Below, in pieces: positions 1 to 940 of a stretch of DNA of 1,534 nt. The notes under the pieces are model-generated. The model was given only the letters and a program-made list of their open reading frames with translations, had not been told where the DNA came from and did not search any database. A program made the position numbers and the translations under genes. The stretch lies in NCBI GenBank assembly GCA_000004985.1, contig GG739391.1. One strand, 5' to 3'. Position 1 is the first letter of the stretch. Each line of letters begins with the position of its first letter. The DNA comes from Naegleria gruberi (taxonomy: Eukaryota).

Positions 1-316
1 ATGATTGAGATCAGTCGATTTTTCACAACTGTAATCTTTAAAACAGTGGTTGTCATCCAACCCAGATGTAACAACTACTATTAAATAATTCAAATGAGCT
101 TGGAGTTGCTCAAACCCGTTGCTTCTTCTCAAAAGAGTGACTTATTCAACCTTTTGGTGGGGATTGTACAATACTGTTCAACAAATTAACATTGTCTTTT
201 CTTAATGAACTTTTCCTTCATCCTAATTATAAAGGAATTTTTACAAGTAGATGGAAAATGTTCAAAACTGGCTATAGATGGTATAATTCCATTGAACTAT
301 ACTCAAATTCTTAATA
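1..316. repeat. Repeat unit copy 1 (316 bp)
   Basis: Starts atgattgagatcagtcgatttttcacaactgtaatctttaaaacagtggttgtcatccaaccc. Ends ...actcaaattcttaata immediately before the next atgattgag. Has a 1-nt insertion (cccAgatgta) relative to copies 2 and 3. Confidence 0.9.
95..112. repeat. Small conserved palindrome inside the repeat core (tgagc-N8-gctca). It recurs at 409-426 and 723-740.
   Basis: tgagcttggagt(t/g)gctca has 5-bp perfectly complementary arms in all three copies. The only variable base (t/g) lies in the loop. Confidence 0.5.
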
Positions 317-630
317 ATGATTGAGATTGGTCGATTTTTCACAACTGTTATCTTTAAAACAGTGGTTGTTATCCAACCCGATGTAAAAACCACTTAAAAT
401 TGTTTCAAATGAGCTTGGAGTGGCTCAAACCCGTTGCTTCTTTTCAAAAAAGAGACTTATCCAACCTTTTGAATGAGAATGTATTATACTATACAACAAA
501 TTAAAATTTTTGCATTCTTTGAACTTTTCTTACTTCACAATAATTAAGGAAGTTTTACAAGTGGTTGGAAAATGTTCTAAACTGTATGTAGATGGTAACA
601 TTCCAATGGAGTATACTCAAAATCTTAATA
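317..630. repeat. Repeat unit copy 2 (314 bp)
   Basis: Starts atgattgagattggtcgatttttcacaactgttatctttaaaacagtggttgttatccaaccc. Homologous to copy 1 along its full length, about 85% overall and over 93% in the first ~135 bp. Ends ...actcaaaatcttaata. Confidence 0.9.
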
Positions 631-940
631 ATGACTGAGATTAGTCGATTTTTCACAACTGTAATCTTTAAAACAGTGGTTGTCATCCAACCCGATGTAA
701 AAACGACTTGAAACTATTTCAAATGAGCTTGGAGTGGCTCAAACCCGTTGCTTCTTTTCAAAAAAGTTCCTGATCGAGCAATGTGATGAGGCTGTAATAC
801 ACTATTCAACAAAGTAAATTGTTTGCAATCTTAGGGTTTGGATCCCATGTCAACCCCTATTTATTAAGCTTTTCTCCTTAAATACATTAACAATATATAT
901 CATAAATGATGTCAAAAGATGGTGATTGTAATGGGGCACA
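631..940. repeat. Repeat unit copy 3, array-edge copy. 631-768 is highly conserved. 769-~940 is strongly diverged and carries an apparent insertion around 835-870. The 3' end is uncertain.
   Basis: 631-768 matches copies 1 and 2 almost base for base through ...gcttcttttcaaaaaag. Beyond that only patchy similarity remains. gtaatacactattcaacaaagtaaattgtttgcaatctt matches gtattatactatacaacaaattaaaatttttgcattctt. gcttttctccttaaatacattaac matches aacttttccttcatcctaattat. aagatggtgattgtaatgg matches tagatggtataattccattg. Confidence 0.7.

Follow-up and report, generated by a model that had tools for sequence, protein, structure and literature searches.

The stretch of DNA analyzed here, referred to below as the window (1,534 bp, 32% GC), is probably non-coding tandem-repeat DNA, most likely eukaryotic nuclear, in which a unit of ~314 bp is repeated head to tail at least 2.65 times (positions 1 to 832) and abuts unrelated unique DNA. 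The features that make up this arrangement, none of which is assigned to a strand, are as follows.

1 to 316: repeat unit 1, 316 bp, complete when the phase is counted from the first base of the window; 82% identity to unit 2 over 314 aligned bases
317 to 630: repeat unit 2, 314 bp, complete; supported by Tandem Repeats Finder, the repeat search, MAFFT, and block identities
631 to 832: repeat unit 3, ~202 bp, partial, ending at monomer phase ~202 to 206; local alignment reaches 832
1 to 138, also 317 to 453 and 631 to 767: conserved monomer block; 88 to 93% identity between units
139 to 205, also 454 to 519 and 768 to 832: hypervariable monomer block; 58 to 73% identity in every unit pair
833 to 1534: flank of unique AT-rich non-coding DNA; no open reading frame, Pfam, or protein match

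Structure and extent of the array

Tandem Repeats Finder reported an array at positions 1 to 766 with a period of 314, 2.4 copies, 86% matches, 1% indels, and a score of 1114, and a repeat search of the window recovered three in-register copies with start-to-start spacings of 316 and then 314 bp, which bears out the tandem array with a unit of ~315 bp described in an earlier note on this DNA. Inside the array, identity in sliding windows was 0.7 to 0.97 at lags of 313 to 316, compared to a background of ~0.3. The head-to-tail repeat is real and far exceeds chance.

A right-hand boundary of the array had also been placed inside the window, and we could locate it at 832, where homology to the monomer stops, rather than at 766 or 940. 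Over its first 137 bp unit 3 shares 93% identity with unit 2, falling to 73% over the next 66 bp, and a local alignment of positions 456 to 519 with positions 770 to 832 scored 30, while shuffled sequences scored 10.3 ± 1.6. Past 832 there is no monomer homology (the best score against the rest of unit 1 or 2 was 9, and shuffles also scored 9); the extent of 1 to 940 given previously must therefore be corrected to 1 to 832, as nothing beyond this point resembles the monomer. The array accordingly comprises ~2.65 units and stops abruptly at 832, at monomer phase ~202. A three-way MAFFT alignment, for which the input sequences were 1 to 316, 317 to 630, and 631 to 945, hinted at a weak continuation of unit 3 past 832, but the corresponding local alignment was not significant and this extension was rejected.

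The last unit is expected to be partial, because a count of whole units holds only in the array's own boundary phase and the phase used here was set by the arbitrary start of the window. At the other end the repeat starts at base 1, in agreement with the earlier suggestion of an array running off the left end of the window, and because unit 1 reaches that end the array may extend upstream. No dimeric, higher-order, or inverted substructure of the monomer was significant compared to shuffles. The one-to-two-nucleosome scale that had been attributed to the monomer likewise found no counterpart in its internal structure, as its two halves show no relationship to each other (score of 20 versus 17.1 ± 2.5 in shuffles).

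Divergence within and between units

Each unit is a mosaic of a slow-changing block of 138 bp, a fast-changing block of ~68 bp, and a moderately conserved block. Identities by segment of the three-way alignment are given below.

Columns 1 to 138: 88% (units 1/2), 91% (units 1/3), 93% (units 2/3)
Columns 139 to 206: 70% (units 1/2), 58% (units 1/3), 73% (units 2/3)
Columns 207 to 328: 82% (units 1/2), 46% (units 1/3), 46% (units 2/3)

The conserved and hypervariable blocks differed in every comparison (Fisher p = 0.003 for units 1/2, 7e-8 for units 1/3, and 1e-4 for units 2/3). Over the 206 columns shared by all units, identity was 82.4% between units 1 and 2, 86.7% between units 2 and 3, and 80.3% between units 1 and 3, and the difference between the first two of these pairs had a p value of 0.27. 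Neighboring units are 82 to 87% identical, and among the three units available there is no gradient toward the edge. This result does not support the previously proposed decay of the edge copy: the highest identity is between units 2 and 3, and divergence in the last unit does not exceed that in the rest. The degeneration of the third copy after ~138 bp, which had been cited in the same context, is instead a property of the monomer, given that the hypervariable block is 70% identical even between units 1 and 2. Transversions exceed transitions in the comparisons between units (35 to 21, 25 to 15, and 18 to 9).

Constraint on the 138-bp block, which would not be expected under a purely passive model, may account for the significantly uneven conservation of the monomer; a mutational hot spot in the variable block could equally be its source.

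Absence of coding and known-RNA signal

The window is without coding or known-RNA signal. There is no open frame of more than 65 amino acids under the standard code anywhere in the window and no convincing one under other genetic codes, and a Pfam search at E ≤ 10 with ten of the longest stop-free peptides returned only noise. When all stop-free six-frame peptides of the repeat and the flank were compared to a collection of 5.8 billion proteins, there was no match at E ≤ 0.01, and four open reading frames of the window, looked up by exact sequence, corresponded to no recorded called gene. A coding repeat was rejected on the basis of this lack of support from six-frame translation, alternative codes, Pfam, and the large protein collection.

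Searches for structured RNA gave a similar picture. Rfam returned no credible match for the whole window at E ≤ 1, and for positions 600 to 840 alone at E ≤ 10 it returned only C/D snoRNA noise (15 to 16 bits against thresholds of 39 to 70). ARAGORN found no tRNA in the window, and the conserved block folds no better than shuffles on either strand (z = -0.7 and -1.4). Hammerhead ribozymes occur in the satellites of newts and Schistosoma, which have units of ~330 bp; here a hammerhead was considered and rejected, there being no core motif by inspection and no Rfam match.

We also examined motifs resembling an internal RNA polymerase III (Pol III) promoter in the conserved block. Units 2 and 3 (355 to 444 and 669 to 758) contain an A-box-like motif, TAAAACAGTGG, with 2 mismatches, and 56 nt after it a B-box-like motif, GGCTCAAACCC, that departs from the scanned consensus GGTTCGANNCC at 2 positions (at 1 when position 6 may be a purine); a TTTT run lies 8 nt downstream of GGCTCAAACCC in both units. 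These observations raise the idea that the 138-bp block is a tandemly repeated Pol III unit, whether a gene for a small RNA or a SINE head derived from a tRNA, with the rest of the monomer as spacer, which we regard as improbable. The array would in that case consist of clustered copies of a small-RNA gene not previously described, or be a satellite derived from a SINE head, and would not be inert DNA; we hold this equally doubtful. In its favor, the boxes and a T run occur in order in two units, within a block that is significantly better conserved than its surroundings, and the B-box region can pair, by inspection, into a hairpin resembling a T arm (5-bp stem, 7-nt loop). The combination of A box, B box, and TTTT arose in 1 of 300 shuffles, although this null preserved only mononucleotide composition and the motifs were noticed post hoc, as was the hypothesis itself. 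Against it, two of the three elements are missing from unit 1, which has neither the B-box G nor the T run; ARAGORN recovered no tRNA, Rfam gave no match above noise even with the block alone, no acceptor-stem pairing was evident by inspection, and folding was no better than that of shuffles, as noted above.

Composition and likely compartment

In array and flank alike, CpG is depleted (observed/expected ratio of 0.49) and TpG overrepresented (1.44), and AA/TT dinucleotides recur with a periodicity of ~10.1 to 10.5 bp in both the monomer and the flank. Together with the lack of any gene in 1.5 kb, these properties led us to read the window as eukaryotic nuclear DNA. Judged solely by composition and the absence of genes over this distance, the evidence suggests methylated, nucleosome-packed DNA.

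AT-rich non-coding tandem repeats of a few hundred base pairs are typical of organelle repeat regions, such as the mitochondrial control region, and of the sub-repeats of rDNA intergenic spacers, and in its metazoan-mitochondrial mode ARAGORN called two tRNA-like structures. An origin of the array in either setting is nevertheless very improbable. Both mitochondrial calls lack an arm, and one of them lies in unit 2 only and was not called in units 1 and 3; shuffled sequences averaged 0.29 calls, with two or more calls in 7 of 100. As the standard mode of ARAGORN gave no call and the mitochondrial calls were not significant compared to shuffles, a tRNA or mitochondrial tRNA was rejected. The longest frame under mitochondrial codes, which have two stop codons, encodes 107 amino acids and is hydrophilic, not resembling a membrane protein by inspection. 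Neither rRNA nor protein matches that would indicate mitochondrial genes beside the repeat were present in the window, and Rfam gave no rRNA match; for the spacer in particular, linkage to 18S or 28S rRNA was not seen in the window, of which the visible flank makes up only 700 bp. Finally, the combination of depleted CpG and excess TpG is indicative of methylated nuclear DNA.

Prokaryotic and phage repeat systems (CRISPR arrays, iterons, and coding repeats) were also rejected: the 314-bp units adjoin one another directly, the 1.5 kb of sequence contains no gene, and prokaryote, phage, plasmid, Escherichia coli, and viral collections contain no relatives.

Searches for related sequences

Phage and plasmid collections searched with blastn in distant mode and E. 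coli genomes searched with megablast yielded no match, nor did exact scans of viral contigs with invariant 19- to 22-mers. A scan of prokaryote genomes and JGI metagenomes with 19-mer seeds found three loci that match over only 19 to 24 nt, and given the size of the collection these matches are due to chance. There is thus nothing related to the repeat among the phage, plasmid, E. coli, prokaryote, metagenome, and viral collections, which do not cover eukaryotic repeats.

Twelve conserved k-mers of 14 to 19 nt were absent from the papers searched, save for one chance match to an unrelated primer. A literature search for satellites of "314 bp" returned Allium cepa pAc074 and two irrelevant mentions, so that the lead is by length only, and a search for "315 bp" found none. 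The subtelomeric ACSAT/pAc074 satellite of Allium cepa has monomers of 314 to 378 bp (PMC6387171). In the text and 24 supplementary files of that paper, six k-mers of 12 to 13 nt from the conserved block (representing five distinct sites, one of them on both strands) were absent.

The flanking sequence

Beyond the array, the monomer scored 24 to 27 against the flank, compared to 25 ± 2.2 in shuffles, and no repeat signal was detected in the flank at any lag. Remnants of the monomer in the flank were considered and rejected, as the short matches found there were not significant.

Several other observations concern this region. At positions 828 to 836, exactly on the junction of array and flank, TTAGGGTTT matches nine bases of (TTTAGGG)n, the telomere repeat of the plant type; by our own estimate such a match is expected ~0.16 times per window, and it is probably due to chance.

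We also noticed, post hoc, a candidate insert of 235 bp resembling a miniature inverted-repeat element (MITE) at 1096 to 1330. Its arms are 13-nt inverted repeats with 12 of 13 positions matching, ATGGCTCAGAATC (1096 to 1108) and GATACTGAGCCAT (1318 to 1330), and the candidate is bordered by the 8-mer ATGTGAAA at 1088 to 1095 and 1333 to 1340, the copy on the right being offset by 2 nt; the same 8-mer is present at 952 to 959 too. An 8-bp duplication around the element would be hAT-like. Of 300 shuffles, 0 contained the inverted repeat together with a flanking direct repeat of 8 nt and 90 contained the inverted repeat alone, and the segment from 1096 to 1330 folds with a z score of -2.8, none of 200 shuffles folding as well. 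Within it lies an imperfect palindrome, GGAAGTGAAAGTGCCATTTGGCACTCACTTCC (1138 to 1171), comprising an 8-bp and a 6-bp stem plus a 2-nt bulge (self-BLAST E = 2e-4). Three copies of the palindromic 8-mer TTGATCAA lie in the flank (1016 to 1023, 1039 to 1046, and 1246 to 1253). In addition, a donor-like GGTAAGT at 1298 and an acceptor-like TTTCTTAG ending at 1349 would, by inspection, delimit an intron of ~50 nt, with no coding evidence on either side.

Origin of the array

On the best-supported reading, which is a passive one, the arrangement probably arose when a ~314-bp segment was duplicated in tandem, with unequal exchange or replication slippage altering the copy number; the repeat itself would make no product. 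The partial last unit and the end at 832 would then represent the breakpoint of the original duplication. The visible units are probably old and not under active homogenization, because neighboring units differ by 13 to 20%. This level of divergence fits either a short locus-specific array or the poorly homogenized margin of a longer satellite, and we consider these two cases in turn.

The array may be short and specific to this locus, its few units either standing alone or forming the internal repeat region of a transposable element whose other end lies upstream of the window, and this is the origin that we tentatively prefer without giving it an even chance. The divergence of neighboring units without a sign of homogenization is consistent with such an origin, as is the abrupt end of the array, and the candidate MITE-like insert in the flank suggests a transposon-rich setting. 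Arguing against this origin, the window shows neither a terminal inverted repeat nor any other terminus bracketing the array, and no element terminus was recognized to its right; the flank is also unrelated to the monomer, and the left side of the array lies outside the window.

It is also possible that the window captures the right margin of a long, high-copy satellite, heterochromatic or subtelomeric, with hundreds to thousands of units and extending upstream past base 1. The array reaches the very first base; satellites commonly have such a unit length, AT-richness, division into conserved and variable blocks, and 10-bp AA/TT periodicity; and it shares with satellites constant-period head-to-tail units (314 to 316 bp, three in register) with no gene product found. 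Higher divergence at the margins of arrays is established, and the divergence seen here would fit such a margin. What speaks against a long satellite is that identity shows no gradient toward the edge, that the visible units number only 2.65, and that no published satellite was matched by the literature k-mers or in the supplements of the Allium paper mentioning a 314-bp satellite. Moreover, a window that contains an edge would favor short arrays a priori, because these are far more numerous than long ones and any array contributes just two edges. We rate the short-array or element-associated origin slightly higher than the satellite margin because the window holds an edge and no homogenization is visible.

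Eukaryotic genomes have few features more common than tandem repeats of a few hundred base pairs that border unique DNA, and the importance of this one is small; the 314-bp array gives no sign of an unusual structure or product. The monomer could serve as a cytogenetic or assembly marker within its source genome.

Comparison with known systems

Pol III-transcribed units and the heads of tRNA-derived SINEs share with two of the three units an A-box-like motif, a B-box-like motif, and a T run. The conserved block differs from them in that these motifs are degenerate (the boxes being only approximate) and missing in unit 1, a cloverleaf is absent, and neither ARAGORN nor Rfam gives support, the latter with no tRNA match at E ≤ 10.

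Tandem arrays in or beside transposable elements, such as the internal repeats of MITEs, Helitrons, and CACTA elements, likewise consist of few units that end abruptly against unrelated sequence, and here too a candidate small inverted-repeat element lies close by. The CvA/pearl elements of bivalves, for example, carry a repeated core (PMC5874043). The present array differs in that no flanking element termini were recognized and it has no similarity to a transposase or known element in the collections searched.

The satellites Allium cepa ACSAT/pAc074 and Tribolium castaneum TCAST, with monomers of ~300 to 380 bp, resemble the array in their head-to-tail, non-coding, AT-rich units of similar length and in the presence of conserved and variable blocks within the unit. 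The match of these satellites to the 314-bp monomer is one of length, taken from the literature, with no sequence relationship shown. For TCAST-like elements, short dispersed arrays have been described near genes (PMC3411249), so that short arrays beside unique DNA, as seen here, are documented among them.
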